Shown here in pieces: positions 6,966 to 56,749 of a stretch of DNA of 64,000 bases (positions within the stretch are counted from its first letter, which is position 1; every line of letters starts with the position of its first letter). Origin of the DNA: a virus. The stretch lies in IMG/VR virus record IMGVR_UViG_3300045136_000267; one strand, 5' to 3'. A model generated the notes under the pieces. It searched no databases and was not told the origin of the DNA. It saw only the letters and a list, made by a program, of their open reading frames with translations. Both the position numbers and the translations under genes were made by a program.

Positions 6966-7066
6966 AGAAAGAACAATTATTTTAGCTAACTATAAACAGA
7001 ATAGACATGCAGCTAATAGCTATTAGTAATGAAGTATAAAGCAAAGGCCAGGAATAAAAGCAAAAT

Positions 7067-7092
7067 AGCTGGCATAAATAATTGAAAAAAGA
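7067..7092 (+). promoter_or_regulatory. candidate phage promoter motif
   Basis: ggcataaataattgaaaaaaga; identical 22-mer at 9359. Confidence 0.5.
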
Positions 7093-7381
7093 AAAGAGAA
7101 TTATAGAAGCTAATAATAGTAGCTTCTTCTTTTTATAGCAGAGGGCTATAAAAAATTTTAATAATGTTGGCAGCCAAAGTTAATTGCTAGTAAGTTACTA
7201 TGAATTAGCACTGAATTTTATGTTAAAATAGTTAAATAAGGGAGCATAGGAAAGCTAATATTTATTAAATTTCACTTATCAAAGAGAGTAAGCATCCCTC
7301 ATAGGAAAAATTGGATTTTTGAATTTTGGGAATTGATTTTAATTTAAAAGAGTAAAGAACTGATTCTTTCGTTTATTTCGT

Positions 7382-23230: not shown

Positions 23231-25900
23231 ATGGCATTCCAAGAATTTGATGTAAGTCAACCTATAACCAATAGACTATCTCATCTAAATCCATTCTTGG
23301 ATTATTCTAGCCTATTCCAACCGTCAAACTGGACTAATGCTCTACGGTGGTGTCATCATCCTAATACTTGGATAGAATGCGATTCTAATATAAAGCCTAT
23401 TACACAACTTTCAGTAGGAGATAAAGTACTTGCAGATAACGGTAAATATTTAGAAGTTACTAATATAATCTCCAGAGAATATTCTGGGGATATGGTAAGA
23501 ATATATCCACATGGCGGTTTCCACTTAGATGTAACCGCAGACCACAAGGTTTATGTAATATTTGATAATTTCTCTGATGTACAACTTATCCCAGCAGTAG
23601 ATGTTACACCAGATCATTACATTTTAGTTCCATCTCGGAAAAGTAATTCTGCTGAAGTTAATGCTTCAGAAGGAATGTCTTTTATAAAGCTATCTAAAGA
23701 ATCTATTACTCTTCATAACGAATTGTTAAGAATAAATAATACCGACTTGATTCATAACTATCTACGCTTTTTAGTTGATAACTACAAAACTAGAGAAGAT
23801 TCTAATTGGTACTATCTTAAATTAGATGGAATTCCTGTATCAGATGCTTTTCCCGTAGTTTATTCATTAAATAGATTCTTAGACTCTATTGGAATGGTAT
23901 CTTATGTAGATGAATTATTTGAAATAAAGATAAAGAGAGATCTCCTATTTCCGATTCTTAACGACCCTTTTGTACCTAAACCTAGGACTACATTTTCTAA
24001 AGATGTTGTCTACAAAGACGGTTATATCTTTAGAAGGGTTAAACAAGTATTACATTATCACTACACTGGACCGGTATACAGTTTAACTATTGCAGATTTA
24101 CACAAATATGTAGCTAACGGCGTTCTCGTTGCCAATTGTGAGTACATTGTTATTAAGAGCGGAATTTTACGTTCTGCCATAGATAGAATTATCAGTTTCT
24201 TCATTACAGATATAGAAGTAGAGAACGCAGATAATTCTCTTAGAAAGAAATATTATGATTATCTTGTCAATGATCTGAGAATTAAGGAATTCTTAAGATA
24301 TTGTGCTTTTGATTACATAACTTATGGTAATTTCTTTGTTTCTGTTTTACCATCTATAAATAGAATAGCACGATGTCCCGAATGTAGTTTCACTAAATCT
24401 ATTAGTAAATTTAATAACAGAATTAAATATTCTAATGGTAAATTCCAAGGAATATGTGATAGTTGTGAAAAACATGTAGAGTTTAAAACCAAGGAATATA
24501 AAGATAAGAATAGTAAATTAATACTTAAAAGGTGGAAAATTTATGATATCAGATTATTTGAATTTGATGACTTTACTGGCAATTACGACATTCTATGGGT
24601 AATTCCTCAGGAATATAAAGAATTTATAAGAAATAAAGCTACTAATAGAACTATTGGATCAGTACCTAGAGAAGTGCTTGACGCTGTTGATACTAATTCT
24701 GATTTAAAATTTAACAGAGATACTATTTATCATGGGAAAGAAGAATCTTTGAGTGGAGTAAGACTCAAGGGTTGGGGATTAAGTAGAATCTTTTCTTGCA
24801 TCCAACAAGCATGGTACGTACAAGTGCTTCATAGAATGAATGAGGCTATTGCTTTAGACTATGTACTACCATTAAGAATTATTACTCCTATGCCTAGATC
24901 TTCTATGGAAGGTGGTGATCCTATTAGAGATATCAACTTCGGCGGTTTCTCTGCTAGATTAGCTTCTATTTTAGATATGCGTAGAAGGGATCCTACTTTG
25001 TGGCATATTTCTCCATATCCACTTGATTATAAATCTATTGGTGGAGATGGTAGAAATCTTGCTCCAAGAGAAATGTTTGAATTTGCAGTAGATCAGTTAT
25101 TAAATAGTCTGAGCATTCCAATTGAATTCTACAAAGGATCAATTCAAGTAAGCTCGGCCCCTTTTGCTATGAGAGTATTAAATTCTAACTGGAATCATTT
25201 AGTAGGAGCACTTAATGGTTTCTTATCTTGGTTATCAAATAGAATTTCTTCAGAATTAGATTGGGAACCTGTAAGAGTTAGACTAGCCTCTCCGACTCAC
25301 GTTGATGACATTAATACTCAGATGCTTAAGTCTAGACTTGCTATGAGTGGTCAGCTAAGTAAGGATGAAATGTTTAGCTCTATGGGTATGAACTATGAAG
25401 AAGATCTCAGGAGACAGTTAGAAGAGCAGATCCTGTCTGCTCAAGAGACTAATAAAGCTCAAGAAAGAATAGAAAAACTAAATCTAGGTAAAGACATGGC
25501 CTCTGGAGCTTACATGCAGCAAATGCAACAACAAGCTCCTCCAGGAGGCGTAGGAGGCGCTCCTGGTGGAGGAGGTGGTGCACCCCCACAACAGGGCGCT
25601 TCAATGGCTTATGATCCTGTATCTCAAATCTTGGCTAGCTTACCACAAGGTCCCATGCAAAATGTTAATCCTATGGAGCTAGATAATCTAGCTACACAGG
25701 TAGCTCTGTCTATTAGAGGTAGACCCGAGCCTGAGAAGGATTCCTTGTTGAGGCAGCTTAAGGTTAAGAATGAAATGCTATGGATGGTAGTTAAAGAGAA
25801 ATTGAATGATATGAGGGCTGCGGATAGCCGCCAAGGAGTAATTATGGGACAGCAACAAGCGGCTCAAGCAGCTGCCGGTTCTGTACAACCTCCTATGTAG
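23231..25900 (+). CDS. portal protein with intein, zinc-ribbon insert and Q/G/P-rich tail
   Basis: DYITYGNFFVSV, IYHGK...GWGLSRI...EAIA...PLRII portal-like blocks; CPEC...CDSC; 627 aa after splicing. Confidence 0.7.
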   Translation: MAFQEFDVSQPITNRLSHLNPFLDYSSLFQPSNWTNALRWCHHPNTWIECDSNIKPITQLSVGDKVLADNGKYLEVTNIISREYSGDMVRIYPHGGFHLDVTADHKVYVIFDNFSDVQLIPAVDVTPDHYILVPSRKSNSAEVNASEGMSFIKLSKESITLHNELLRINNTDLIHNYLRFLVDNYKTREDSNWYYLKLDGIPVSDAFPVVYSLNRFLDSIGMVSYVDELFEIKIKRDLLFPILNDPFVPKPRTTFSKDVVYKDGYIFRRVKQVLHYHYTGPVYSLTIADLHKYVANGVLVANCEYIVIKSGILRSAIDRIISFFITDIEVENADNSLRKKYYDYLVNDLRIKEFLRYCAFDYITYGNFFVSVLPSINRIARCPECSFTKSISKFNNRIKYSNGKFQGICDSCEKHVEFKTKEYKDKNSKLILKRWKIYDIRLFEFDDFTGNYDILWVIPQEYKEFIRNKATNRTIGSVPREVLDAVDTNSDLKFNRDTIYHGKEESLSGVRLKGWGLSRIFSCIQQAWYVQVLHRMNEAIALDYVLPLRIITPMPRSSMEGGDPIRDINFGGFSARLASILDMRRRDPTLWHISPYPLDYKSIGGDGRNLAPREMFEFAVDQLLNSLSIPIEFYKGSIQVSSAPFAMRVLNSNWNHLVGALNGFLSWLSNRISSELDWEPVRVRLASPTHVDDINTQMLKSRLAMSGQLSKDEMFSSMGMNYEEDLRRQLEEQILSAQETNKAQERIEKLNLGKDMASGAYMQQMQQQAPPGGVGGAPGGGGGAPPQQGASMAYDPVSQILASLPQGPMQNVNPMELDNLATQVALSIRGRPEPEKDSLLRQLKVKNEMLWMVVKEKLNDMRAADSRQGVIMGQQQAAQAAAGSVQPPM
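23351..24136 (+). mobile_element. intein (262 aa) with decayed endonuclease region
   Basis: N-term CHHPNT..., block B VTADHKV, block F VYSLTI, end YVANGVLVAN followed by +1 Cys. Confidence 0.92.
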
Positions 25901-26857: not shown

Positions 26858-28072
26858 ATGGATTTGCTACATTTGTATTTAACTAAATATGCTAAGAAAG
26901 CAGCGGATGGAGGTGAACGTAGTTTAGATGCTCTCTCGTCTTCTGTAGGAATGGAATCTGATTCGGATACTACTGATTCTGCTCCTGCGGCTGGAGGTCT
27001 CTCGACAGGTACTAGAGGCGCTACAGCAGCTACTACTGGAAGCACTGCTGTAGGGCCTGCTACTGGAAGTCCTGCTGCAGGTACTGCTGTAGGGCCTGCT
27101 ACTGGAAGTCCTGCTGCAGGTACTGCTGTAGGGCCTGCTACTGGAAGTACAACTGCAGGTACTGCTGCCGGTACTACTGGAAGTACAACTGCAGGTTTTA
27201 CACCTACCTCTGTAGCCGGAATTACTTCTCTTGAGCATATTCCTCCTTTTATTCTTTATGAATTAATTAATGAAGTTCTTCGTAGAGATTATAATAGTGG
27301 GTATAGAAACCCAATGCAATTTCGTCACGAAGAAATGAAGAAAGTAGACGAAGTGGCTAGAACAGCCTTAGATGAAGTCTTTAAGTCATTGCCTGAAATA
27401 GATAATCCAATAAACAACATATTAAAGGATGCACGGAGAGAACGGGAAGAACTTATGCGCCGTGGGGCACAAGCTGTGCTAGATTCTTATGCGGGTTATC
27501 GTACTTTGCAGGCAGCTCGTGGAATATATCCTAGAAATCCAGAAGCGGCTAATGTTCTTCAGAGTGAAAAACGTAGAAGGATCTTGGAACAAAGAATGTA
27601 CAATCATACTCTTGTTGCAAAGGAACGAGAAGCACACATTCAGGCTCTAGCACAGACTGTAAAAGGCTTAAAAGAGACAGCTCCTGTTCCATCTTTTGAC
27701 GAAGTATTTGACTATGCTAAGCTTATAGTTCCAAACACCTTTGGGATAACAGGTTATCCTAATAAAGCGAGAGCAAATGTAATACTAAAAGATTTAGCGC
27801 GTTATGCAGCACTTAGAGAAGATCCTGATTCTGAAGGAGTAGTTAATGGTGTAGCTGCTGCTCTTGATAGACTAAAGAGCGGGCCCGTATCTCAAGTAGG
27901 AAGAGCAAGAGATGAATATATTGTTGAAAGGGGCCTTAAGTATCTATCAGAGAAGTCTAACCTTAATGAAACTACCCTTATGAATGTATTTGGGGCTGGC
28001 AATTCTGAGTATAAGCATGTTGTAGCAAATGTCGTTCGTGATGCTGAAACGAGAAGGAAACTAGGCCTTTAG
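26858..28072 (+). CDS. Cys-free virion-candidate protein with K-x-A leader and repeats
   Basis: YAKKAAD; TAVGPATGSPAAG repeats; no Cys. Confidence 0.7.
   Translation: MDLLHLYLTKYAKKAADGGERSLDALSSSVGMESDSDTTDSAPAAGGLSTGTRGATAATTGSTAVGPATGSPAAGTAVGPATGSPAAGTAVGPATGSTTAGTAAGTTGSTTAGFTPTSVAGITSLEHIPPFILYELINEVLRRDYNSGYRNPMQFRHEEMKKVDEVARTALDEVFKSLPEIDNPINNILKDARREREELMRRGAQAVLDSYAGYRTLQAARGIYPRNPEAANVLQSEKRRRILEQRMYNHTLVAKEREAHIQALAQTVKGLKETAPVPSFDEVFDYAKLIVPNTFGITGYPNKARANVILKDLARYAALREDPDSEGVVNGVAAALDRLKSGPVSQVGRARDEYIVERGLKYLSEKSNLNETTLMNVFGAGNSEYKHVVANVVRDAETRRKLGL
27044..27196 (+). repeat. 39-bp coding tandem repeat
   Basis: actgctgtagggcctgctactggaagtcctgctgcaggt twice plus partial copies. 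Confidence 0.9.
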
Positions 28073-28611: not shown

Positions 28612-29262
28612 ATGGATAGACATCTGTTAGATAAAATTGACAATGGATGGAAATCTAGTAGATTATTATTTTTTCTCAGCTCTAAGCTGAATCCAGATAA
28701 AGTAGTTAAAACCGCCAGTCTTGTTTCTGACTCTGACGCTGCTAATTCTAAATATATTTGTGAAAAGATATTTGAGCGCTGTGATACTATCGGTGAATTC
28801 TTATTTAGTCATTATATGACTAAAAATGCTGAATACGTAACAATACCAGACTGCGATGATTATGTTAGAAAATCTTTTGCTCATTATATTAAGAACGTTA
28901 AAGAAGCAGGAGGATCCCTAGTCAATGATCCCTTTATCTCTGCTGTCTTGGGTGAGAAGAATGCTAAATACCTGGATAATAGGGTAGACTCTGAAATCAA
29001 GAATAATGAATATGATGGAATGTATCCTGCTTCTGTCTCTAAACTTGCTATGATTAAAGGTGCTTCTGAATCTTTTATTGATGAATGGAAGAAATTAGAG
29101 CCTGCAGATAAACTTGCTACTTTGCTAGGACTGCCTCCTAAGACTTTTCAAAAGAAGGCAGAGGATGAAATACTGCAAGATTTGTTAACTACTGTGGGTA
29201 AATTCTCTAATATTTTAGCTTTCAGTCTAATAGGTACTAAACCTCAAGCAGAAGAGAAATGA
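28612..29262 (+). CDS. K-x-A-rich head-core candidate
   Basis: VKTAS, TKNAE, VKEAG, SKLAM, QKKAE. Confidence 0.6.
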   Translation: MDRHLLDKIDNGWKSSRLLFFLSSKLNPDKVVKTASLVSDSDAANSKYICEKIFERCDTIGEFLFSHYMTKNAEYVTIPDCDDYVRKSFAHYIKNVKEAGGSLVNDPFISAVLGEKNAKYLDNRVDSEIKNNEYDGMYPASVSKLAMIKGASESFIDEWKKLEPADKLATLLGLPPKTFQKKAEDEILQDLLTTVGKFSNILAFSLIGTKPQAEEK

Positions 29263-30690: not shown

Positions 30691-32427
30691 ATGCCTACCC
30701 CTGAGTCTTTAATCACACTAGGTACACCATCTACTTTAGGAACACCTTCTACTACAGGAATAGGTGTACTAGACTCTTTGTATTCTCTCTATAGAGCAGT
30801 AGCACCCTTGGCTAGCGTATTTCTGTCTGGTCAAGGGATGATGCATGTAGCACCAGATCAATCTGTAGGGGATCAAATCCAAAGACTTACTGCTCATAGA
30901 AGATCTTATGAATCTATAAAAAGGCTTCTCCCCAGTGAAATCGATGATATGAAAAATGCCATTAGAGGATTATTGATTTCCTCTGGAGTTGATAGATCAA
31001 CACTTGTACCAGGTTCTCCCGTTGAAGAGCACATAGATAGACTAGCAAGATTATTTGAAAAAGTATATCCGTTACTATTTTTCGCATATCCTAGTGCTAT
31101 TAAAGTTATAAATCCTAGATCTAAATTATTTTTAGCTAATTCATTAAATAAAGTCTTTGAAAGACTCACACCTTTCGCTTCACCAGAAGAATTAGCAGAT
31201 TTAGCAGCATCTGCTGCCACTAAAATTCTTTCAAATCCTAAATATCATCAAGGATTAGATGCTCACGAAATAGCAGAAGTTGCAGAAAAGGCTGTTAAAT
31301 TCGGTTTAGTAAGACTTGGTTCCGGTCAGCAATTTACAGATGATTTAATAGATACTATTGCAATAGTAGCTCCTGTCAGAGAAGAAGCTCTGCGTCGTGG
31401 TGGTCAGTTTTCTATTGAGAATGCTTTATCTCTAGCTAATCAAGTAGCACAGCAATTTCCTTCTGCTTCTCTTAGAGATATTGCTGTAGAAATTAGACGT
31501 AGATTTGAACTAGATGCTGCTGGAGGTGAATATAGATCTTTGACCTTAGATCCACAAGCAGCCTCCTATATTCGCCAATCTGGTGTACCAGTAGAAAAGC
31601 TGGAAAAGCAGCATGAAGAACTCAAGGAAAATGCAGTAAATTCTTACATGGGTTCTGCTATAGGGGCTATTGCTAAGGCTGTAAGAACTGGAATGGTATC
31701 TCCGAATAGTCCTGCTGGTAGGATATATCAAAATATTCAAGCTGGAGGAGTTCCTCCTATGATCTATCCACAGCATGCTTTTGAAGTTCTTGTTTCTTCT
31801 GGAATTGCCCCTGGTGTAGCTTCTATTATGTTATCGTCTCCAGAAGAAAATTCTCATTGGTTAACACCTAATGATGTCCAAGCTATAAGAAGAATGCAGA
31901 TGCAAGTAGATTGGATGCCTAGATTTCAAGCTATAGCAGCCTCTTTCCCTGGTAACGATCCCCAATCCAGAGCAGTGAGAGAAGCGATGCTATCAAAAGT
32001 AGTAGCAGATGGTGGTTATAAAAACATATACCATTTCTTAGCTCTACACGGTCCTGTATTGCAATCTATGCCACAGATCAGAGAGGTAGTAACTAGATCT
32101 GCAGTAAATAAAATGGAGCTAGCTGGTTATGATAATGCTAGCTGGGGTGGACCTGCCCGTGGAATGGCAGCATTACAAGATATCGGCTCCGGTAAGCGAG
32201 AACAGAAATTCTCCGTAGGGGATTTGGCTAGTACTGTATTCCAATTTTACAGACAACCCAAAGGACTAGATATAAACCTAGGATTGGCGACTCCTACTCC
32301 AGCTACGGAAATTAAACCTATAGATGTAATGGAAAGAAGAGATAGTATTTCTATAAGAGAAGATTCAATGCCAGAACCTGTTCTGTCAGATTTTTCTTCT
32401 ATAGGGAGATCCTTGAGTAGCGATTAA
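30691..32427 (+). CDS. Cys-free helical virion-candidate protein
   Basis: 578 aa, Ala-rich, no Cys; directly upstream of the ligase. Confidence 0.7.
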   Translation: MPTPESLITLGTPSTLGTPSTTGIGVLDSLYSLYRAVAPLASVFLSGQGMMHVAPDQSVGDQIQRLTAHRRSYESIKRLLPSEIDDMKNAIRGLLISSGVDRSTLVPGSPVEEHIDRLARLFEKVYPLLFFAYPSAIKVINPRSKLFLANSLNKVFERLTPFASPEELADLAASAATKILSNPKYHQGLDAHEIAEVAEKAVKFGLVRLGSGQQFTDDLIDTIAIVAPVREEALRRGGQFSIENALSLANQVAQQFPSASLRDIAVEIRRRFELDAAGGEYRSLTLDPQAASYIRQSGVPVEKLEKQHEELKENAVNSYMGSAIGAIAKAVRTGMVSPNSPAGRIYQNIQAGGVPPMIYPQHAFEVLVSSGIAPGVASIMLSSPEENSHWLTPNDVQAIRRMQMQVDWMPRFQAIAASFPGNDPQSRAVREAMLSKVVADGGYKNIYHFLALHGPVLQSMPQIREVVTRSAVNKMELAGYDNASWGGPARGMAALQDIGSGKREQKFSVGDLASTVFQFYRQPKGLDINLGLATPTPATEIKPIDVMERRDSISIREDSMPEPVLSDFSSIGRSLSSD

Positions 32428-32429: not shown

Positions 32430-34724
32430 ATGCCTCCATTTGCTGTTGGTATCCCAGATAAAGCAAATTATGGAAATATTAAAGCATTACAAGAAGGAAA
32501 CTTCTACGATCTAGTATTACAAGAACATGACGCTGAACGCGCCGGCAAACATTATGACTTTAGATTAGGAAATTCTGATATTGGTTTATTATCTTGGGCT
32601 ATACCTTCTGCAAAATTACCGGCGCCTGGGGAAAAAGTATTAGCTATCCAGCAACCTCTTCATTCCTACGATTACAGAACCTTTGTAGGAGAAATACCTT
32701 CTGGTTATGGTAAAGGTAACGTATCTCTAGCTTATTCTGGTAATGCTCTCGTTACGGCCATAGATCCTGATAAAAAGAGAATTTACTTCACCATTGCTTC
32801 TGATAGACATCCACGTAAATTCATATTACTAAAACCTGATACAGATAAATACGGTAAGGATGCTTGGCTATTAATTAATATCACTCCAAATAAGCCACTT
32901 CCTTATGCCAAGGTAAAATACCCCGTTATTGACAAAAAGAAGTTACAACAACTATTAGAGAAAGAAGACTATTTAGTTGCAGAACCTAAGATTGACGGTG
33001 CTCTTGGTTTAGTTCAACTAGGCGACAAAGGATTAGAAATCTTTGGGCATAGAATTTCCAGAGTTACAGGATACCCTATCCAATATACGGATAAGATATT
33101 CAAGACTAAACCTACTCTGAACCTTCCATTAAAGTATGCAGGAAGTATTCTGCGGGGTGAAGTTTATGCCGTAAAGACTTTACCAGACGGCTCAGAAGTA
33201 GTTGTAGAACCACAAATACTTAGTGCAGTATTAAATTCTTCTGTAAAGAATGCTTGGGATAGATTAAGAGATCTCGGTCTTAAACTTAAGATAGGATTAT
33301 TTGATATCACAAATTATGGTGGAAATCATTTAGATCCAGAAACAGTTGACTATCCCGCTAGACGTAAGATGTTACTAGAAATCTTACAATATTTACCTAA
33401 AGATACTTTTACAGTAATTCCTTATGTAGATAAGAAAGAGGACATCCTGAAATTACTCCAGGAAATAGAATCTGGGCAACATCCTCTTACAAAAGAGGGA
33501 ATAGTTGTCTACAGAAGGTATGGTTATCCATACAAATATAAAATAAGACCTGAAGAAGATGTATATATAAAAAGAATTATTCCAGGACTAGGGAAATATT
33601 CAGATTCTGCTGGTGCTTTTGAATATAGCTACACCCCTGACGGCCCTGTAGTAGGTACAGTAGGAACTGGATTTTCTGATGAATTCAGAAAATTCATGAT
33701 GGAAAATGTTGAATCTCTAGTAGGAAGACGAGCTAGGGTAACTTATCAAGAGAAGTTTCCTTCTGGCGCCTTGAGAGCCCCTTCTTTCATTGCTTTGCAC
33801 GAAGACTATCCTACAGTTCAAGAAAAGCAGGCAAGTTTTGTTCTACCAGAAGAAGATGAGAAATGGTTATTAGCCATAGACATTCTAAAGAAAGTAGATA
33901 ATTTTATTAAGAAAGGAGATGCTTCTTCTTATCTAGATATCCCTGTTTTAGAATTACCTGTTAAAGTCTATAACAATATTCAGAAGATATTAGGTGGACC
34001 TAATCCATTAACTGCTATGGCTTTAGATGCTCTTATCGGAATGGCATTAGGAGATCTAGCTGGTAGAACTTTGGAATTTGCTTTTCCTAGATTCTTTGCA
34101 GATAGCAAATTCAGAAAAAGGCTTTGGTTAGCTGGTTCTCTATTAGGTGCTTCTTTACCATTTTATATCCACGGAATTCAAAATCTCAGTACACACGGAT
34201 TAAAAGGTCTTTTAACTCCTTCTCCAATCCAAGAGGCACTGACTAAATCTGCTATTGATTATCATGCTAAGAAACTTCGAGTACTTGCTGAAGATTTAAC
34301 AGGAAAGAAAATAATAGATGATATAAATCCTGAATTCATAAAAGAAGCTTCTGTTAAATTAGCTGCTAAATTTGATGTATCTGAATGGGGTAAGACAGTA
34401 TTAGATACTGATTTATCTCCCTGGGAGAAAACTCTGTTAGTAACTGTGCCATTAACAGCTTCTATGTATAGAGGTTCTGATTGGGTAACTCCTGTTGATG
34501 TTGCTAAAGTATCTGCTAATATGGAATTAGGATCATTGTTCGGTAGGCTATTAGGTGATTTAGCCGTACCTATACTAGGTTTACCCAGGGATGTTAAAGA
34601 AGATCTACAAAGAACAGGTCGCCTTACTGGATTATTAAAAGGTTTTACTGGATCTGTTAAGAACGTATTATTAAATACTGGAGATAAGACTTATGACGAA
34701 ATCGGGAAAGCGCTACAAATTTAG
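32430..34724 (+). CDS. LigD-type 3'-phosphoesterase + ATP-dependent DNA ligase + C-terminal K-x-A/hydrophobic extension
   Basis: PE: QEHDAERAGKHYDFRL, SWAIP, LAIQQPLHSYDY, GEIPSGYGKG; ligase: EPKIDG, LRGEVY, LFDI, EGIVV, YKYK, VGTGFSD, LRAPSF. Confidence 0.9.
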   Translation: MPPFAVGIPDKANYGNIKALQEGNFYDLVLQEHDAERAGKHYDFRLGNSDIGLLSWAIPSAKLPAPGEKVLAIQQPLHSYDYRTFVGEIPSGYGKGNVSLAYSGNALVTAIDPDKKRIYFTIASDRHPRKFILLKPDTDKYGKDAWLLINITPNKPLPYAKVKYPVIDKKKLQQLLEKEDYLVAEPKIDGALGLVQLGDKGLEIFGHRISRVTGYPIQYTDKIFKTKPTLNLPLKYAGSILRGEVYAVKTLPDGSEVVVEPQILSAVLNSSVKNAWDRLRDLGLKLKIGLFDITNYGGNHLDPETVDYPARRKMLLEILQYLPKDTFTVIPYVDKKEDILKLLQEIESGQHPLTKEGIVVYRRYGYPYKYKIRPEEDVYIKRIIPGLGKYSDSAGAFEYSYTPDGPVVGTVGTGFSDEFRKFMMENVESLVGRRARVTYQEKFPSGALRAPSFIALHEDYPTVQEKQASFVLPEEDEKWLLAIDILKKVDNFIKKGDASSYLDIPVLELPVKVYNNIQKILGGPNPLTAMALDALIGMALGDLAGRTLEFAFPRFFADSKFRKRLWLAGSLLGASLPFYIHGIQNLSTHGLKGLLTPSPIQEALTKSAIDYHAKKLRVLAEDLTGKKIIDDINPEFIKEASVKLAAKFDVSEWGKTVLDTDLSPWEKTLLVTVPLTASMYRGSDWVTPVDVAKVSANMELGSLFGRLLGDLAVPILGLPRDVKEDLQRTGRLTGLLKGFTGSVKNVLLNTGDKTYDEIGKALQI

Positions 34725-35205: not shown

Positions 35206-35586
35206 ATGCCTAATCCTACGAATACGCCCACCCCTGTTATAGATCATATTAGTAACTTCCTATATACTGCTATTCCAACGTCAGCTAGCTATGTAGCGAG
35301 CTACTTTCCCATAATTCATAATTTATCTGGTACCGCAATCGGTAATGCATTAGCTAATATCAGGAATACTTTTGGTTTAAGTTTTCCTTCTGTAAAGAGA
35401 AGCAAAATAATAGCCAAGGAAGTAGCACTTGCACAAAACAAGGCGAGTCTAGAAACAGCTAAAAAGCTACTTAGAGAAGAGATAAATAAATCATTAGAGT
35501 TGATAAGAAATAATAAGACCTCTGACGAAGAAGAGCAACAGACTAAATCTGCTAGTTTCTATATTAAACAGAACAAATACTTGTAA
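35206..35586 (+). CDS. virion-candidate protein
   Basis: C-terminal QTKSASF; no Cys. Confidence 0.6.
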   Translation: MPNPTNTPTPVIDHISNFLYTAIPTSASYVASYFPIIHNLSGTAIGNALANIRNTFGLSFPSVKRSKIIAKEVALAQNKASLETAKKLLREEINKSLELIRNNKTSDEEEQQTKSASFYIKQNKYL

Positions 35587-36931: not shown

Positions 36932-39900
36932 ATGCAGACATTAGCTAGGCCTGTTCAAGAACTTGAAGAATTGAATCCTGATACCTTTAAGTCTGTAGAT
37001 ACATCTCCAACGTTACCTACTATTACTGACATTCCCAAGAATTCTATAGCAGTAGATGACATTCAAGCAATCAGACATAAAATCTTTGATAATGTACTTA
37101 AAACATTATCTTCTGCTCCAGCACACGCTTATGGTAATTATGTTCTTAAATTAGAGAATCTTAAATATGCTGACCCTGATAAGTTTTCTATTCAAGACGA
37201 AAGAGATGCAATTATTAAAGGTAATTCTCTTACTAGAAGACTAGTAGGCGATTATGTTCTTATTGATGCCAAGACTGGGAAAGAGATAGCTAGAAGAAAG
37301 CAGTTAGTAGCTAGAGTACCTTATCTTACTAGTCATGGATCCTTCATTTTCAATGGAAATGCTTACAGTATTGCCAATCAACTACGTTTAAAGCCTGGCG
37401 TCTTCATACGTCTCCGTGGTGATGGTAATGCAGATACTTTCGTAAATACTGTCAAAGGATTGACTCATCATTATACCCTTGACCCTGAAAAGGGTATATT
37501 CTACATGTCCTTTGGTAATGTAAATATTCCACTATTTACCGTTCTAAAAGCACTCAACGTCCCTGATGAAAAGATTCTAAGTGCTTGGGGTCAGAAACTA
37601 TATGCTTCTAACGCCGCTGCCGGAGCTAAAGCTAACATTGCTAAATTATTTAAGAACAGATTATCTCCAGAACAGATAAATCAAGCTCTTCCTAAACTAT
37701 TAGAGAGCATGAAGTTAGATCCAACAGCTACCCAGCTAACTATTGGTATTCCTGCTACCCATGTCACTCCAGACGTAATGCTTGAAGCTACTAAGAAAAT
37801 GCTAAAAGTATGGAAGGGAGAAGCAGAAGCTGATGAGCGTGATGCTTTACACTTCCAGAAAATAGCAGGAGTAGAACATTTAATTCCAGAATATGTATTC
37901 AGAGCACATCAAGGATTACGTAAGTTCATTCCTAGAGCTGTAAGAAAGAATTTCGATTTAAGCGTTATCCCTAGTAATTATTATTGGACAGGCATCTCAG
38001 ATTTACTTCTCGGTAGTGGCTTAGCCGAGATTTTGGAAGAAATTAATCCCACTGAGACCCTCGATAGACTATACAGAGTTACTAAGTTAGGCGCCGGTGG
38101 TATTGAACAAGTAGAAGCCGTACCAGAGGAAGCTAGATCTGTACATCAGACCCACATGGGTTTTATAGATCCAGCAGTAACAGGTAAGTTAAAGCGAGTA
38201 GGCGTAGATTTAAGACTTGCATATCTTACTAGGAGAGATGAGAACGGTAAACTTTATACAGTATTTAAAGATGTAAAGTCCGGTAAATTCGTATGGCGTT
38301 CTCCAGAAGATCTCATTAATGCCGTAGTAGTTTATCCTGGTGAAATGGATAATAAAGATAATTATGTATTGGGATCTAAGAACGGCAGAATTAGATATTT
38401 CAACAGAGAAGAAGTAGATTACGAACTACCTTATGGGGAACAATATTTCAATACAATTACTAATTTTCTACCTGCACAAGGAACAACCTTCCCCCAACGT
38501 ATCATGATGGGTCAGCAAATGCATTTGCAGGCCCTTCCATTAATTAATGCTGAAGAACCTCTAGTTCAGGGGAAGCTACCTAATCAAGATAACTCTTTCC
38601 AAAGAGCTGCATATAAATATTACGGTGTAGTTAAAAGTGATGTAGATGGAATAGTAGAATCTGTAAGTCCTAATAGAATAGTTGTCAGAGACAAAAGATC
38701 TAATAAGAAAACTGTATACGAATTATACAATAATTTCCCTTTCAATAGAAAGACGTTCATTCATAACACCCCAGTAGTTAAAACAGGGGATGAAGTATAC
38801 AAGAACCAATTATTAGCGACTTCTAATTTCTCCGATAAGAATGGCAATCCCGCTTTCGGATTAAATGCTTACATAGCATTTTTACCTTATCGTGGTTACA
38901 ACTATGAAGATGCTTACGTGGTATCTGAATCTTTTGCTAAAAGATTAAACTCTGAACATATGTATCAAGAAACTCTGGATATAGCTCCAAACATAATCAC
39001 TGGAAAAGATGCTTATAAAGCGGCGTTTCCAGGTAAGTATTCAGAGGAATTTTACAATAACTATGATGAAAATGGATTCTTAAAACCAGGTAGAAAAGCT
39101 ATTAAAGGACAACCATTAATTTTAGCTGTAAAATCTGCAGATCCGGGTAGAATAGGAGCAAAAAAGAAGATACTTTCTGATGCATCTATTATTTGGGATC
39201 ATGAAAATCCTGGTGTAGTAATAGATACTCATAAAGGAAGAGACAATCTTTATATCAACATTAAGTCTAATTCTTTAGCAATTGAAGGAGACAAGTTAAC
39301 CGGTAGATTTGGTGACAAGGGTGTAATCGCTAGGATCATTCCTGATAGTGAAATGCCTAGAGATAGTCTAGGCAGACCCTTTGATTTACTAGTTAATCCT
39401 CTAGGACTAGCTACTAGAGGTAATATGGGGCAAATCTATGAGGCTGTTCTAGGTAAAATTGCCGCTAAAAATAAGAAACCTGTATTTGTTCCAGCCTTCA
39501 TGAGCGACTATTACGTTTTTGCTGATAATATGTTGAAGGCCAATAGGGTTTCCCCCACAGATACTGTTTATGACCCAAAATTTGGCACATATATTCCTAA
39601 TGTTTTAACTGGATATAAATATGTGATGAAATTGCATCACATGGCAGAATCTAAGTTGCAAGAAAGAGAGACTGCTGAATATACAGCAGAAGACATGCCT
39701 GCTAGAGGAGGTAAGACAGGGGCAAAATATATAGGTTTCTTGGAATTGATGGGTATCTTAGGTCACAATGCTTTCAATGTTATTAGAGATGCCAAGTTTG
39801 TTAGAGGACAAAGAAATGACAGATTTTGGCTAGATTTCATGCGTGGTGCTACTCCCACAGTCAATACATCAACATTGGTTTATGATAAATTTGTAAACCT

Positions 39901-41335
39901 ATTAAAAGCTGCAGGTATAAATATAGAAAGTAACAACGACACTTTGAATCTTTTCGCCCTTACAAACTCTGATATCGCTAACCTGACTGCAGATAGGGTA
40001 ATTAGAAATCCAAATACTGTTAAAGTATTACGTGATGATGTTAAGCCAATAACAGGCGGTTTATTTGATCCGACTATTACTGGAGGTCTAGATGGTAGGC
40101 ATTGGAGCTATTTTGAATTATCTGAACCATTTCCAAATCCAGTAATGGAAGATGTAATTCGTACATTATTGGATTTAACAGAGAAAGATTACATTGACAT
40201 TCTAATAGGAAAGAAAACTCTTGAAGGTTCAAATAAATTAGGGCCAGAAGCCCTTAAGGAAGTCTTATCAGAATTTAATGTTGATAAAGAACTAGATACA
40301 GCTATTCGCAATTACAAAGTAGCTCCTGCTAGCAAAAAAAGTGCTTTGATAAAGAAGATTAGATATCTACGGGCTATAAAGCAAACTAATCAAAAGCCAG
40401 AAGAATGGTTCTGGACGAGAATGCCTATTATTCCACCAATCTTTCGTCCAGTCTCCTTAACTAATAAAGTAATAACGGTAGCTGATGTTAATGCTTTGTA
40501 TCAAGATTTGTATGAAGCTAATGAAATATTAAATTCTCAGAAGAAATTCATGGAAAATCCATCAGAAGCTAGACTTGCTGTCTACAACGGCATGAAGGCT
40601 GTAGCAGGAATAGGTGATCCTATTCAAGTTAAACATAAGCAGCAGGGGTTAAGGGGTTTATTACAGCAGATAGTAGGTACCAGGTCTAAAACAAGCTATG
40701 TAATGCGTAAGCTTATTGGTATAACTACTGACTTGGTAGGTAGAGCTGTAATCATTCCAAATCCTGCCTTGGATATAGATCATGTAGGTATTCCCATAGA
40801 AATGGCCTGGACTTTATTCAGGCCAGTAATAATAAGAAATCTGACTAAACGCGGACTTTCTCTAGTAGATGCAATAAAAGCATATAATGATAAATCTAAA
40901 TATGCAGTAGATGCGTTACTAGAAGAGATAAATAACAGGGTAGTTATAGTAAATAGAGCGCCAGTACTGCATAGATATGGTGTAATGGCATTTAAGCCAG
41001 TTCTTACAAAGAATAAAGTAGTAGAATTCAATCCTCAAATAACGTCAGCTTTTGGAGCAGACTTTGATGGTGATGCTGTTCAAGTACATCTTCCCATACT
41101 TGATGAAGCTCAAAAAGAAGCTAAGATGAAAATGCTACCATCAAAGAATTTATTCTCTTCTGCTAATTTTGGACTGTTATATCCTCCGATTAGAGAGTAT
41201 GCTTTAGGTTTATGGCTGGCAACAGCTTACGAAGATAAAACTAAAAAACCTGTAAGGTTTAAATCTATTGGCGACCTACTTAAAGCATATAATAGAGGTG
41301 AAATTACAATAAATACGCCAGTAGAAATTGGTTAG
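36932..41335 (+). CDS. phage multisubunit RNA polymerase: beta fused to N-terminal half of beta'
   Basis: beta: GSFIFNG..QLRLKPGVF, GYNYEDA, GDKLTGRFGDKGVI, KLHHMAESK; beta': GGLFDP, PIIPPIFRP, NRAPVLHR, catalytic GADFDGD (41054-41074). Confidence 0.95.
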   Translation: MQTLARPVQELEELNPDTFKSVDTSPTLPTITDIPKNSIAVDDIQAIRHKIFDNVLKTLSSAPAHAYGNYVLKLENLKYADPDKFSIQDERDAIIKGNSLTRRLVGDYVLIDAKTGKEIARRKQLVARVPYLTSHGSFIFNGNAYSIANQLRLKPGVFIRLRGDGNADTFVNTVKGLTHHYTLDPEKGIFYMSFGNVNIPLFTVLKALNVPDEKILSAWGQKLYASNAAAGAKANIAKLFKNRLSPEQINQALPKLLESMKLDPTATQLTIGIPATHVTPDVMLEATKKMLKVWKGEAEADERDALHFQKIAGVEHLIPEYVFRAHQGLRKFIPRAVRKNFDLSVIPSNYYWTGISDLLLGSGLAEILEEINPTETLDRLYRVTKLGAGGIEQVEAVPEEARSVHQTHMGFIDPAVTGKLKRVGVDLRLAYLTRRDENGKLYTVFKDVKSGKFVWRSPEDLINAVVVYPGEMDNKDNYVLGSKNGRIRYFNREEVDYELPYGEQYFNTITNFLPAQGTTFPQRIMMGQQMHLQALPLINAEEPLVQGKLPNQDNSFQRAAYKYYGVVKSDVDGIVESVSPNRIVVRDKRSNKKTVYELYNNFPFNRKTFIHNTPVVKTGDEVYKNQLLATSNFSDKNGNPAFGLNAYIAFLPYRGYNYEDAYVVSESFAKRLNSEHMYQETLDIAPNIITGKDAYKAAFPGKYSEEFYNNYDENGFLKPGRKAIKGQPLILAVKSADPGRIGAKKKILSDASIIWDHENPGVVIDTHKGRDNLYINIKSNSLAIEGDKLTGRFGDKGVIARIIPDSEMPRDSLGRPFDLLVNPLGLATRGNMGQIYEAVLGKIAAKNKKPVFVPAFMSDYYVFADNMLKANRVSPTDTVYDPKFGTYIPNVLTGYKYVMKLHHMAESKLQERETAEYTAEDMPARGGKTGAKYIGFLELMGILGHNAFNVIRDAKFVRGQRNDRFWLDFMRGATPTVNTSTLVYDKFVNLLKAAGINIESNNDTLNLFALTNSDIANLTADRVIRNPNTVKVLRDDVKPITGGLFDPTITGGLDGRHWSYFELSEPFPNPVMEDVIRTLLDLTEKDYIDILIGKKTLEGSNKLGPEALKEVLSEFNVDKELDTAIRNYKVAPASKKSALIKKIRYLRAIKQTNQKPEEWFWTRMPIIPPIFRPVSLTNKVITVADVNALYQDLYEANEILNSQKKFMENPSEARLAVYNGMKAVAGIGDPIQVKHKQQGLRGLLQQIVGTRSKTSYVMRKLIGITTDLVGRAVIIPNPALDIDHVGIPIEMAWTLFRPVIIRNLTKRGLSLVDAIKAYNDKSKYAVDALLEEINNRVVIVNRAPVLHRYGVMAFKPVLTKNKVVEFNPQITSAFGADFDGDAVQVHLPILDEAQKEAKMKMLPSKNLFSSANFGLLYPPIREYALGLWLATAYEDKTKKPVRFKSIGDLLKAYNRGEITINTPVEIG

Positions 41336-41959: not shown

Positions 41960-43810
41960 ATGACTACAGCAGGTGCTGTTTTAATAAATGCAATATTACC
42001 AGAGGATATAAAAGTATCTGGTACTTTAGACGTAAAAGAGATAAGGGCTCTTTTGTCTAAAGTAGCTCAGAAGTATCCAGATAAATTTCCAGAGATTTCT
42101 TTGAAGTTAGGGAACTTGGGTGCCGATTTTGCATATCGGCACCCAAAGTCTTCTTTTTCTTGGGAGGAATTAGCTCCTACATACGAATTAGATAATCTAA
42201 GAAAAGATTTATATTCTAAAGTTAGAGAAATAATTTCCGATTCCACTACAGACTGGGATAAAAAGTCTAGTAAAATAATAGATATAGTATCTAAATATGA
42301 TGATCTCTTCTTGGAAAAAACCAAAGAGATATTGAAACAGAGAGGTGGGGCTCTTTACGGTCAGTCTTCTTCTGGTACTAGAGGTAAACCTGTAGATATT
42401 AGAAGACTTCTAACGGGTGATATTCTCTACGTAGATCATAAGAATCGACCTATTCCTGTTCCAGTATTACGCGGTTATTCAATGGGTCTAAGACCAAGCG
42501 AATACTGGCTAGCAACTTTCGGCGCCAGAAAAGGATTCGTGACTACGAATCTTGGAACAGCAGATGCTGGGTACCTAAGCAAACAATTAACTAATGCTGC
42601 TCATAGACTTATAGTCACTGCTGTTGATTATAAAGGTAAGGATCCACTACCTATTGGATTACCAGTAGATACTTCAGATCCTGATAATGCTGGTAGCTTT
42701 CTTGCCGCAGATGTAGGCGGCTATAAACGAAATACTTTATTAACTCCAGAGATATTAGCTGATTTGAAAAATAAAGGTTTTAACCAGATTCTTGTCAGAA
42801 GCGTTTTAACCAAAAGACTACCAGGTGGTGGAGTAACTGCTAAAGATGTTGGATTAATGGAAAACGGTAGAATGTTAAGCCCAGGGGATATGATTGGAAT
42901 AATTGCTTCTCAATCTCTAGGTGAACCTGTAACACAAATGGTTATTGGGGCTAAACATTCTGGTGGTACTTCTAAGACTAAGATAGACATTGGTTCTTTG
43001 ATTCTAGCTTTGCAAGTACCCAAACAATATAGGGGAGCTGTACATACCGACAATGCAGGTACTGTTAAAAACATTACGGATGCTTCTGCTGGTGGTAAGA
43101 TTGTTACCATTGATAATGAACAGTATTACGTACCTCCGCAAGAAGAAGTAAATGTAAAAATTGGTGACTTTGTAGAAGCTGGTGATCCTATTAGTTCTGG
43201 AATTCCAAATATTTCTAAGTTAGTACAGCATAAAGGCATTGGAGAAGGTAGAAGGAAATATGTAGAATTATTAAGAGATATTTATAAGCAAACAGGTTTT
43301 AATATAATAAGAAGAAACTTTGAAATATTAGTTTCTGGATTAATAGATCATGTAAAATTAACTCAACCCATAGGGAATTACATTCCTGGAGATGTGGTAT
43401 CTTACACGTGGTTAGAATCTAAGTGGACACCACGGGAAGGTAGTAAATGGATATCAGTAGATAAAGCTGCAGGAAAATATCTAGAATTGCCAGTTTTACA
43501 TTATACTATCGGAACAGCTATTGCACCATCTATGGTGAAAATATTAAAACAATTTAATATTGACAATGTTTTAGTACATGACGATCCTCCGCCATTTGAA
43601 CCTTACATGGTTCCGGCTGCTAAAGTTATTGATTATGATCCAGATTGGTTAGTACGATTTTTAGGTGGTACCTTTGGACAGAAGAGAAGCTTAATAAAAG
43701 CTGTTAGTGAGGGACATAAGAGTGAGATTTTCTCTACTTCTTATGTACCTCCTTTCGTTACCGGGAAAGCATTTGCCACGGAGTGGCCTAAAAAGATTCT
43801 GCAAAGTTGA
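41960..43810 (+). CDS. phage RNA polymerase beta' C-terminal half
   Basis: SGTRG, bridge helix GARKGFVTTNLGTADAGYL, trigger loop SQSLGEPVTQM..KHSGG, RNFEILV. Confidence 0.93.
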   Translation: MTTAGAVLINAILPEDIKVSGTLDVKEIRALLSKVAQKYPDKFPEISLKLGNLGADFAYRHPKSSFSWEELAPTYELDNLRKDLYSKVREIISDSTTDWDKKSSKIIDIVSKYDDLFLEKTKEILKQRGGALYGQSSSGTRGKPVDIRRLLTGDILYVDHKNRPIPVPVLRGYSMGLRPSEYWLATFGARKGFVTTNLGTADAGYLSKQLTNAAHRLIVTAVDYKGKDPLPIGLPVDTSDPDNAGSFLAADVGGYKRNTLLTPEILADLKNKGFNQILVRSVLTKRLPGGGVTAKDVGLMENGRMLSPGDMIGIIASQSLGEPVTQMVIGAKHSGGTSKTKIDIGSLILALQVPKQYRGAVHTDNAGTVKNITDASAGGKIVTIDNEQYYVPPQEEVNVKIGDFVEAGDPISSGIPNISKLVQHKGIGEGRRKYVELLRDIYKQTGFNIIRRNFEILVSGLIDHVKLTQPIGNYIPGDVVSYTWLESKWTPREGSKWISVDKAAGKYLELPVLHYTIGTAIAPSMVKILKQFNIDNVLVHDDPPPFEPYMVPAAKVIDYDPDWLVRFLGGTFGQKRSLIKAVSEGHKSEIFSTSYVPPFVTGKAFATEWPKKILQS

Positions 43811-43830: not shown

Positions 43831-46167
43831 ATGACTTCTAGCTTAAGTACTAGTTTTTCTGTCTTAAGAAAATTACCTGAAAAGAGGTTTCTGGGTAATT
43901 ATAAATTTGCAGCCGCAGAGGGGGATGAAGGTAATTATGAAGCTGCTTTGAGCAACATTGCTCATGCTTATATACAAGACGTAGCCCCAGATCTACTTCC
44001 TTATGAATTGGGATTTCAGTTAGTTGAAAAGAACAGAGACGCTAATAGAGCCCTTGGTGTATTTGGTTTTAAGATAAACAACTTAGTTTGTTATATTCCT
44101 ATTTTCTTTATTGATGGAGACATTTTTGGCCTAGATCTTCTCTTTGTTCATAATTTTAAGCGCTGGATTCCTCTTGAGAGAGAATTTGTAAAGAAATTAA
44201 TTAATTCTTCTAAAGCAGCTGTAGGTAGTCCAGTAGATGCTCTATCTAAATCGTTATTATCTGAATTACCTAATTTAATGCAATTTAAGCCTTATACGCT
44301 CAAGTGGGCTATGGACCTACCTGAATGGCTAAGACCTTTCTCTGTAGAACTAGTAAATAACAAAAGAGCACCTAAAGTAGAGAGAAAAGAGAGATTATTA
44401 GATTTACTTTCTAAATCCGCTTCTGCCGCAAGGAAATTTAGTGAATTTTTACTTGAGCATCCTATTTACATTAAATCTTTTGACAAAGCCTATGGTTTGA
44501 ATCGTATTAAAGAAGCTATTAAAACAGCGGCTGATACTGACAAAAAACCAGTAATTCCTTCATTGGAGGAATCTGGTAAACCTGCTGATGTAGAGATTTA
44601 TACTAATATCCATTCAGACGCTATTCATAAACTTACTGAGACAGAATTGGCCACCCTTAGAAGACAAGGATATTATGTAAAGGATAAGAGAAATAAAACT
44701 ACTATTATAAAACCGTATGAATTTAACAATAAGAAAGCACAGACGGTAGATAAAGCAGGTTTTTATCATCTATTACTTGCCGATCTATCTAGAGTGTGTG
44801 CTTTTGTAGTACCTATCGTAGCTGAATTTGATGAAGATGTTTATTCGTCTTCTAATGAGAACGAAAGAAAGCGTCGTGATAAGCATATTAAGCATTCTTA
44901 TTTAGTAGTTCCTATTTATAGAATGGCAGAAGATGGTGAAATCTTAAAGACTTATTCTGGTGACCTTGGCTTTGTCGCTTATTCTGATAGCTTAGTGGCT
45001 ATTAATACTCCAAAAGACTATGATAAACATTCTATTAATGACTTTAAGTCATTAAGAAATATCGAAGGTAATAAAGATTATTACAGCAGATATATAGTAT
45101 TTACAGCAAATAATGCTACTCCTCCTATTAGGCAGTTAAAGAAATTAGATAAACAACATAGAGGTAGGACACTATTCTCTGTAGACTTAGACTGTGGTTG
45201 TGTATCTGAGGGACCAATCGAGCCATATCCTACCCATCTTGTATTAGATCCTGTTCTAACTAATGAAATTAAGTTCCATAAGAGATTTGATAATAATGCT
45301 AAATGGAATGAAAAGTCTATAAGATTACATGTTCCTGTCAATGCTAAATATGTGAAACTAATAAACGATTATGTAGACTCTGATTCTGAAGAGGCAGAAA
45401 TAAATAGTATTAGGCATGGTCTTGTTAGTTCTAATGACATTTTACGTACTCTTCTTAAGAGTGCAGATGGTGAATTAAAGGCATTTGAAATATCTAACGA
45501 TGAGGTAATCATTAATAACAAACCCTTGAATAAGAAAGCTGCCTTTCAACATCTAATTCTAGACTATGGCTTGAGTGAAGCTGACGCTAAAGAAGTATTG
45601 AAGAAAGTTGCATATAAGAAGGAAGCTAGATACGTCTATAAAAAAGCAGATGATATGAATTTTCCAAATGCTCCTCCGCCTCCAGGAGGACCTGCATTGG
45701 AAAAGATGCAGCCTTATCTAGGTTCGTTTGGACAAGCTCCTGCAACTAGTCCTCTTTACTCTATTCTAGTAAATCAAATTCCAGGCCTCCCATTGCCTGA
45801 TAATCCTTATTCTGATCTCAAAGGTACTATTGATTTTGATAAGATTGTCAATCAAGCGATTCAATCCGGGGAAAAAGAAATTCTGGACACTAGCGTATTT
45901 ACTGGTTTGATCCATGCTACTGATGAGAGAGAATTAATAGATAAATATTTTGATGACATAGTAGATGGTCTAAATGCTATTGGACAACTATTATTTAATA
46001 TTTACATGCATAAAGACAAAATTGAAGAAGTATATGGTAAAGAATCTTATAAAGAGATAGAAAATCTAGTTAGAAATAATTTCAGAAATTTAGGAAAGAT
46101 GGTAGTAAGGTTATTCAATAGACCTAATACTTCTAACTTCAAACCATTAACTTCTTTAGAGGTGTAA
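43831..46167 (+). CDS. large K-x-A-rich prohead core candidate
   Basis: YKFAA, LKWAM, SKSAS, IKTAA, LKSAD, NKKAA, KKVAYKKEA, YKKAD. Confidence 0.65.
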   Translation: MTSSLSTSFSVLRKLPEKRFLGNYKFAAAEGDEGNYEAALSNIAHAYIQDVAPDLLPYELGFQLVEKNRDANRALGVFGFKINNLVCYIPIFFIDGDIFGLDLLFVHNFKRWIPLEREFVKKLINSSKAAVGSPVDALSKSLLSELPNLMQFKPYTLKWAMDLPEWLRPFSVELVNNKRAPKVERKERLLDLLSKSASAARKFSEFLLEHPIYIKSFDKAYGLNRIKEAIKTAADTDKKPVIPSLEESGKPADVEIYTNIHSDAIHKLTETELATLRRQGYYVKDKRNKTTIIKPYEFNNKKAQTVDKAGFYHLLLADLSRVCAFVVPIVAEFDEDVYSSSNENERKRRDKHIKHSYLVVPIYRMAEDGEILKTYSGDLGFVAYSDSLVAINTPKDYDKHSINDFKSLRNIEGNKDYYSRYIVFTANNATPPIRQLKKLDKQHRGRTLFSVDLDCGCVSEGPIEPYPTHLVLDPVLTNEIKFHKRFDNNAKWNEKSIRLHVPVNAKYVKLINDYVDSDSEEAEINSIRHGLVSSNDILRTLLKSADGELKAFEISNDEVIINNKPLNKKAAFQHLILDYGLSEADAKEVLKKVAYKKEARYVYKKADDMNFPNAPPPPGGPALEKMQPYLGSFGQAPATSPLYSILVNQIPGLPLPDNPYSDLKGTIDFDKIVNQAIQSGEKEILDTSVFTGLIHATDERELIDKYFDDIVDGLNAIGQLLFNIYMHKDKIEEVYGKESYKEIENLVRNNFRNLGKMVVRLFNRPNTSNFKPLTSLEV

Positions 46168-56353: not shown

Positions 56354-56749
56354 ATGGAACTTAATACTAAGATGGCTTCTGATGCCGTTCAGAAGCTTAT
56401 CAAAGATTGGTATGTGCCTGCCTTTATGACTAAATTGGCGGAGTATGGAATCAAGACTGATGATCCTGAGACTGTACAGAAGCTGTTTAGTATGGCGGCA
56501 ACTTTAGCTACTCTGAATGAATATGGCAGAATTCAGAAAGAGAATGCTGAGGCTAATGCTCTGAAAGCTGCCGTAAAGACTGCTGCTGATGATCTTGCTG
56601 CTCTTGTCAGTGGTAAGACTGTTCAGAAGCAGAATAAAGAGTTAGTAGATGCTGCTGTTTGCCGCAATGCGGTCGTGGATGATCCAGAGCTTAGAAAAGC
56701 CGCTTTGATTTATGGCTATCTAACCTCTGGTGGTAAAGTAGGAGACTAG
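56354..56749 (+). CDS. K-x-A-rich head protein
   Basis: TKMAS, TKLAE, LKAAVKTAA, RKAAL; RBS aggagg. Confidence 0.65.
   Translation: MELNTKMASDAVQKLIKDWYVPAFMTKLAEYGIKTDDPETVQKLFSMAATLATLNEYGRIQKENAEANALKAAVKTAADDLAALVSGKTVQKQNKELVDAAVCRNAVVDDPELRKAALIYGYLTSGGKVGD

Follow-up and report, generated by a model that had tools for sequence, protein, structure and literature searches.

Why would a phage keep an end-repair enzyme of the bacterial LigD type among the genes for its head, and why would that enzyme continue into almost 300 residues of glycine-rich helices? The question is raised by one gene in a 64,000-nucleotide stretch of viral DNA (IMG/VR record IMGVR_UViG_3300045136_000267), which is called the window here. 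The gene is an open reading frame (ORF) on the plus strand whose 764-residue product, labelled P0001, joins a LigD-type 3'-phosphoesterase (PE) to an ATP-dependent ligase and then to a glycine-zipper (Gly-zipper) protein. We propose, as a reading with about an even chance of being right, that P0001 is processed and delivered in the capsid as a heal-and-seal enzyme of the polyvalent-protein kind. Its main rivals are a membrane-anchored enzyme that stays inside the cell, and an enzyme that repairs RNA rather than DNA. The ORF and its enzyme domains are as follows.

32430 to 34724, plus strand: whole ORF, PE-ligase plus Gly-zipper protein (764 residues, ATG start, no internal stops)
32511 to 32873, plus strand: LigD-type PE, residues about 28-148 (Pfam LigD_N and PDB matches)
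32931 to 33548, plus strand: ligase nucleotidyltransferase domain, residues about 168-373, with motifs I-V and K187 in KIDG (Pfam, PHROG 114)
33564 to 33812, plus strand: OB domain with motif VI (LRAPSFIALHEDYP), residues 379-461 (Pfam DNA_ligase_OB_2)

The start of P0001 is confirmed, since the N-termini of homologs align at M1. Pfam placed LigD_N at residues 31-134 (E 2e-13, above the cut-off), DNA_ligase_A_M as a weak match at residues 171-373 and DNA_ligase_OB_2 at residues 385-454, and PHROG 114 ‘ATP-dependent DNA ligase’ was matched with an E value of 2e-23. The PE matched the solved PE structures 3n9b, 3p43 and 3p4h (E 5e-10 to 4e-8), the best value being for Pseudomonas LigD (3n9b, E 5e-10), and its HDA..HYDFRL and H-x-x-D-Y signatures are in place. 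The OB domain aligned with that of the Chlorella virus DNA ligase, for which solved structures exist. Through alignments of 11 and 32 homologs, we found that PE residues H33, H41, D43, R45 and H78 are invariant and Y82 nearly so; in the ligase, K187 of KIDG, R208, E356-G357, K369 and K371 are invariant and E244 nearly so, with further motif residues at FD291-292, in K369-x-K371 and in LRAPSF..HEDY. Judged from these alignments, the enzyme part looks catalytically competent. No Pfam match to a primase-polymerase (POL) domain was found in P0001, and the 296 residues outside the PE-ligase belong to a different family, not to POL. An earlier note on this DNA, made from the letters alone, had read the gene as a PE fused to an ATP-dependent ligase and lacking POL, and the hidden Markov model check with LigD_N, DNA_ligase_A_M and PHROG 114 bears this out. 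Against 50,697 phage records, neither P0001 (tblastn) nor 20 kb of the window (megablast) gave any match. In the mechanism that we propose, the Mn-dependent PE within residues 1-468 would clean 3'-phosphate or 3'-ribonucleotide ends, and the minimal DNA-type ATP ligase would then seal the nick.

The pairing of PE with ligase is otherwise known from bacterial LigD, and some mycobacteriophages circularise their genomes through Ku and the host LigD. Both facts favour LigD-style end joining with a host or phage Ku, by which double-strand breaks would be rejoined or the genome circularised. Against this stand the missing polymerase domain and the missing partner: no Ku was found among the window ORFs scanned, as the earlier note had reported, or in two complete relatives from IMG/VR (G001, 226 kb; G002, 195 kb), in a search whose control found Bacillus subtilis Ku. 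We consider end joining of this kind very improbable. The two relatives carry the module described below with one RNA polymerase beta set each, and each encodes, at another place in its genome, a separate LigA-type NAD+ ligase; therefore the PE-ligase is a second, specialised ligase. The same genomes, without Ku and with the NAD+ ligase, count against both Ku-dependent end joining and a replicative role. An ordinary replicative (Okazaki-fragment) ligase that came by chance to lie in a structural region would agree with the finding of no other ligase in the window ORF scans. It agrees badly with the separate LigA-type ligase of the complete relatives and with fusions to a phosphoesterase, membrane-type proteins and conflict-related domains, which are not replisome-like, and we give it very little credence.

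Motif VI of P0001 ends in HEDYP461 and the chain continues T-V-Q-E-K466-Q-A468-S-F, so that EKQASF lies just past motif VI with K466 at nucleotide 33825, where the earlier note had placed it. The remainder was divided as follows (the slash marks the candidate cut).

33822 to 33839, plus strand: junction E465-K466-Q467-A468 / S469-F470, candidate processing site (Lys-x-Ala, K-x-A, signature)
33834 to 34721, plus strand: tail, residues 469-764, homolog of a stand-alone Gly-zipper family of about 300 residues (phmmer, AlphaFold2)
33984 to 34199, plus strand: GGPNPLT Gly-zipper helical hairpin, residues about 519-590 (most conserved block of the family; predicted local distance difference test score, pLDDT, above 90; borderline transmembrane hydropathy)
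34485 to 34664, plus strand: C-terminal Gly-rich helices, residues about 686-745, VTPVDVAKV...LGSLFGRLLGDLAVPILGL...LTGLLKG (family conservation, hydropathy)

With residues 468-764 as the query, phmmer found 180 representatives, mostly stand-alone proteins of 250-450 residues. The Met-proximal segment of this stand-alone family (W-L-x-V-P...) aligns with E-D-E-K-W-L-L-A-I-D of the tail, directly past EKQA/S, and the conserved blocks are GGPNPLTxMLLGGALGAGLGYGGG, a second Gly-rich helix and, at the C-terminus, VSPxDV...LGLxPxAQxxLQxAGxLAGxLK. The family has no Pfam or PHROG entry; Gly-zipper_Omp matched weakly in only one of 28 members, and no paralog of the tail was found in the window. On these alignments the tail is a complete partner protein that became fused to the ligase in this lineage, rather than a disposable targeting peptide. 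It is also not a general packaging signal, because many ligase relatives have no tail or have quite different C-terminal modules. The earlier note had spoken of a dedicated virion-targeting tail, and this must be given up: the same conserved protein is a separate gene beside the ligase in other phages. Its description of about 300 residues with Gly-rich hydrophobic helices was accurate, for the tail has 296 residues, is predicted helical and holds three moderately hydrophobic Gly/Ala-rich segments (Kyte-Doolittle 19-residue maxima 1.4-2.1, borderline transmembrane).

The AlphaFold2 model of the tail is helical with a pLDDT of 76.6, rising above 90 over the GGPNPLT hairpin. Foldseek against PDB gave no match to the tail fold, VIA-align yielded nothing beyond hairpins of helices in membrane subunits (Z ≤6.4), which is the noise level for helical models, and the Atlas shape search reached template-modelling (TM) scores of at most 0.30; the Protein Atlas look-ups returned no usable match for the tail or for the 578-residue partner described below. 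A complex prediction of ligase core against tail scored 0.00 without controls and carries no weight either way. The weak likeness to small membrane-protein hairpins (Z ≤6.4) and the borderline transmembrane segments speak for an enzyme that is never packaged. The tail would then hold the full-length PE-ligase at the inner membrane near the site of DNA entry or replication, and K-x-A would be a linker habit or the site of a non-capsid (e.g. HExxH) protease. We hold this to be unlikely. In the capsid-delivery mechanism that we prefer, the Gly-zipper part, a glycine-zipper helical protein encoded by a separate gene beside the ligase in most related phages, would enter or contact the host membrane after ejection.

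The tail does not travel with the ligase alone. A third protein is encoded immediately ahead of P0001.

30691 to 32427, plus strand: all-helical conserved partner of 578 residues, its stop 2 nt ahead of the ligase start, fused to PE-ligase in other phages

Among stand-alone Gly-zipper loci, all five with enough upstream DNA (L005, L007, L008, L009 and L010) have a PE-ligase 0.1-3 kb upstream on the same strand, with 38-41% identity to residues 7-460 of P0001 (tblastn), and on the contig of P0130 the Gly-zipper gene directly follows a 1346-residue protein composed of 2H-SAK and LigD_N. The 578-residue partner is conserved upstream of the ligase in two further loci (L001 and L003) by synteny, and is fused to the N-terminus of the PE-ligase in L008 (ORF of 1350 residues) and L009 (1201 residues). 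The 578-residue protein, the PE-ligase and the Gly-zipper protein are thus joined differently in different phages, as is typical of parts of one functional unit. The AlphaFold2 model of the partner is all-helical (pLDDT 70.8), and Foldseek against PDB found nothing for it at E ≤0.001. Its likeness in BFVD to tape-measure and other long helical virion proteins is weak (E ≥1e-3, TM ≤0.27) and was not counted as evidence.

The 1350-residue protein of L008 (positions 3215 to 7267, IMG/VR UViG_3300017991_000049) consists of the 578-residue helical domain, Gly-rich hydrophobic segments with HELTH (HExxH), and then the PE-ligase. The HELTH motif may mark a built-in metallopeptidase, and its position between modules favours the membrane-anchored reading. 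The gene ahead of this polyprotein encodes a protein of 2H-SAK and InPase.

How might the joined modules be separated? We ruled out an internal translation start for the tail, finding no in-frame ATG, GTG or TTG at the junction; therefore the two halves are separable only by proteolysis. The end of motif VI was located in 117 homologs, of which 61 are extended by at least 15 further residues and 56 end at motif VI. On the C-terminal side, K-x-A occurs within 14 residues past motif VI in 38 of the 61 extended homologs and in none of the 56 unextended ones; random windows of the same proteins gave 4.5 ± 1.9, shuffled junction windows 12 (maximum 20), and the reversed pattern A-x-K was found at 10 junctions. 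The junction lysine lies mostly 1-5 residues past HEDYP, and serine is the commonest residue after the alanine. Of the 43 homologs that are fused at their N-terminus, 36 have K-x-A no more than 30 residues upstream, usually 1-5 residues ahead of the conserved (D/E)(F/Y)A-P-G-(I/L)-P-D, which is where P0001 begins. Stand-alone Gly-zipper proteins also carry it, 8-35 residues ahead of GGPNPLT, in 59 of 80 cases. The linkers around K-x-A vary in length and in sequence. Taken from these alignments, EKQA/SF is very probably a functional border, and the simplest reading is that the K-x-A junction is plausibly a processing or cleavage site. We infer that the chain is cleaved behind K-x-A, in P0001 behind A468, with a head maturation protease as the likeliest agent.

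Many otherwise unfused PE-ligases (P0013, P0016, P0018, P0019, P0023, P0087 and P0095) continue for only about 20 residues past K-x-A. These ends look like one amphipathic helix (e.g. GLVDELINIAKE, LLGFVDELQKEI and SGLLDELMHIFSA), similar to the helix with which the tail begins (WLLAIDILKKV); the helix may be a short docking or recognition peptide.

Within the window, K-x-A is over-represented only in the block from 16 to 58 kb (123 against 76 expected; 19 against 19 elsewhere). This restriction to the head-module block argues against a membrane-anchored enzyme in which K-x-A is merely a linker habit. The excess is concentrated, 2-4 times over expectation, in six ORFs (28612-29262, 43831-46167, 47506-48804, 51723-53123, 53120-54343 and 56354-56749), with 15 against 5.0 expected in the ORF at 43831-46167; they may encode scaffold or core proteins that are processed at many points. 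An ORF of 126 residues at 35206-35586 (plus strand) has the C-terminus ...QQTKSASFYIKQNKYL, in which K-S-A-S-F is closely like the ligase junction EKQASF. Another, at 26858-28072 (plus strand, 404 residues, without cysteine), has K-Y-A and K-K-A in its first 15 residues, followed by a long Gly/Thr/Ala-rich repeat (GPATGSPAAGTAV twice).

The position of the gene in the head module was established by homology to Salmonella phage Arash (OQ632216), the nearest cultured relative by RNA polymerase.

23231 to 25900, plus strand: portal gene interrupted by an intein; residues 305-749 match Arash portal gp204 (E 4e-52)
36932 to 41335, plus strand: RNA polymerase beta fused to the N-terminal part of beta' (1467 residues), homolog of Arash gp206
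41960 to 43810, plus strand: rest of RNA polymerase beta' (616 residues), homolog of Arash gp216
51723 to 53123: structural protein, matches Arash gp222
55409 to 56335, plus strand: major capsid protein, homolog of Arash gp226 (E 3e-20)

The 1467-residue polymerase has 31% identity to Arash gp206 over 95% of its length, and the fused beta-beta' RNA polymerase, portal, capsid protein and one structural protein stand in the same order in both phages. Mass spectrometry of Arash particles detected the gp206 RNA polymerase more than any other protein, together with two ligases annotated as RNA ligases and a pyrophosphatase (PMC10585845). From the portal and RNA polymerase homologies it follows that the ligase gene lies between a portal and a polymerase that is packaged in a relative. 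The claim that it lies among virion genes is thereby supported through portal, capsid protein and virion RNA polymerase, and this position counts against an unpackaged, membrane-anchored enzyme. The portal ORF also holds Intein and Hint domains over residues of about 41-302. The 578-residue protein was itself considered as a portal, because the Arash portal has 579 residues and the same position; it was rejected, having no similarity to the Arash portal, and the true portal homolog is the ORF at 23231-25900. Scans of about 40 window ORFs with Pfam and PHROG gave almost nothing beyond RNA polymerase, the intein and one AAA ATPase. The last is a 356-residue AAA_15/AAA_21 ABC-type ATPase at 2599-3669 (plus strand), of the family that includes AbiEii and OLD-like proteins, in the cysteine-rich left part. 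A scan for promoters and terminators around the ligase gene found nothing above chance.

Cysteine content follows the same division of the window. P0001 has no cysteine in its 764 residues, and 89 of 121 members of the PE-ligase family are free of it. The mean over window ORFs is 0.75%, with 1.9% in the left 16 kb and 0.41% in the block from 16 to 58 kb; both RNA polymerase proteins (1467 and 616 residues) have none. A family almost without cysteine fits a protein that would spend time outside the cell, as a correlate only, and speaks to that extent against the membrane-anchored reading.

Which substrate would such an enzyme act on? Metagenomes contain many homologs of the PE-ligase core (about 450-470 residues), often on contigs of 100-230 kb, and the fusion partners of these homologs include SNF2 helicase, UDG, Nudix, GNAT, SET, HD, DUF192, a zinc peptidase, 2H-SAK and InPase; in P0063 the PE-ligase is joined via KQAS to the N-terminal part of RNA polymerase beta'. 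Such partners are typical of packaged polyvalent proteins, which again tells against an enzyme anchored in the membrane and never packaged. They also bear on an RNA-repair reading, in which P0001, packaged or not, would heal and seal tRNA or mRNA after cleavage by anticodon nucleases or RNase toxins of the host. In its favour, 3'-ribonucleotide ends are a known substrate of LigD PE, and among relatives there are fusions to a 2H phosphoesterase, an enzyme of 2',3'-cyclic phosphate, and, in P0121, to a P-loop kinase-like domain; some homolog ligase domains also match Pfam RNA_ligase (PF09414). The RNA ligases in Arash particles (PMC10585845) point in the same direction. On the other side, the OB domain and motif VI are typical of DNA ligases, the best family matches are DNA ligases, other partners (UDG, SNF2) act on DNA and P0001 has no 5'-kinase; moreover, polyvalent domains that travel together need not share a pathway. 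Repair of RNA appears to us improbable, a little more so than the membrane-anchored enzyme.

Capsid delivery of a DNA-repair enzyme, the reading that we prefer, would run as follows. The PE-ligase, the Gly-zipper protein and the 578-residue protein would be loaded into the capsid as one module and ejected with the DNA, and the ligase part would repair nicks or 3'-blocked breaks of the incoming genome ahead of phage gene expression. Several results weigh against it. The K-x-A counts are not independent events, because the sequences are related. P0001 as a whole has seven K-x-A against about 4.6 expected, which is no enrichment, and the earlier remark on further sites in its tail holds only weakly, with three of them (606, 638 and 643); the internal K-x-A of the Gly-zipper family is degenerate in P0001 (PVKVY). 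No protease family matched any head-module ORF in the Pfam and PHROG scans of the window, and the failure to find a head protease there also favours the membrane-anchored rival. No solved virion or ejection protein resembles the tail or the 578-residue partner. Among cultured relatives only Arash has particle proteomics, and it has neither PE-ligase nor Gly-zipper protein, nor a homolog of the 578-residue protein, and therefore serves as context, not as proof; its particle list is also permissive, with 116 proteins detected (PMC10585845). Finally, the substrate may be RNA rather than DNA: relatives carry 2H and kinase-like domains, and some of their ligase domains match Pfam RNA_ligase. Taken together, the reading given in the earlier note stands as regards the intact enzyme, its place in the head module and EKQA/SF on a K-x-A border found across the family, and fails in its wording of the tail.

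If capsid delivery is true, we would have here the first known case of a phage injecting a DNA ligase together with its genome; the only comparable cases that we know of are in eukaryotic giant viruses. A ligase delivered with the DNA could repair the genome or undo damage by host nucleases ahead of gene expression, which would be a counter-defence or genome-maintenance step. Should K-x-A prove to be a cleavage code, it would allow the mature ends of proteins to be predicted in hundreds of genomes of uncultured phages. More speculatively, and with less than even confidence, a large and mostly uncultured clade of big phages might ship a capsid enzyme kit (multisubunit RNA polymerase, PE and DNA ligase, 2H, pyrophosphatase and a membrane-inserting Gly-zipper protein) as interchangeable polyproteins cut by a K-x-A/S head protease. 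The Gly-zipper and 578-residue helical families are two widespread unannotated phage families that now have a defined genomic partner. The PE-ligase, compact, free of cysteine and thermophile-derived (from a large hot-spring phage), could also serve as a useful enzyme.

Compared with known systems, P0001 shares with bacterial LigD (P. aeruginosa PE, 3n9b and 2lj6; stand-alone archaeal PE, 3p43 and 3p4h) the PE signature with all catalytic His, Asp, Arg and Tyr residues, and it holds PE and an ATP-dependent ligase with motifs I-VI in one chain. Unlike LigD, it has no primase-polymerase domain and no Ku partner in the scanned window ORFs, is encoded by a phage in a head module, is fused to a Gly-zipper protein and has K-x-A at its borders. 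Its ligase is of the minimal nucleotidyltransferase plus OB type, nearer to the Chlorella virus or T7-like enzymes than to LigD.

Packaged and processed proteins are well known in other phages. In T4, Alt and IPI-III are packaged, and gp21 cuts at L/I-x-E; in phiKZ, gp175 cuts the inner-body proteins and the virion RNA polymerase at S/A/G-x-E. As with this cargo, a short tripeptide recurs here at module borders and in head-module proteins, on statistical evidence only. Unlike it, the motif is K-x-A, often followed by serine, which to our knowledge is not a described protease specificity, and the putative cargo is a repair ligase.

The closest concept is that of the polyvalent proteins (Iyer, Burroughs, Anand, de Souza, Aravind 2017, PMC5512222), which were proposed to be processed and delivered with the DNA. 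The processing enzyme proposed there is a zincin peptidase (MPTase), not a K-x-A code. The family of P0001 differs in having a LigD-type PE and a DNA-type ligase (‘LigD’ occurs 0 times in that paper), and the Gly-zipper and 578-residue helical families have no description there; a survey of jumbo phages (PMC7824862) makes no mention of a LigD-type PE or of this ligase. Our literature search found no publication on PE-ligase polyproteins whose modules are bordered by Lys-x-Ala. No MuF domain was found in the window scans. The likeness lies in the architecture: enzymes arranged as beads on a string, several unrelated enzymatic and conflict-related domains freely shuffled within single chains among the homologs, and genes beside those for portal and head, with the portal homolog here 6.5 kb upstream on the same strand.

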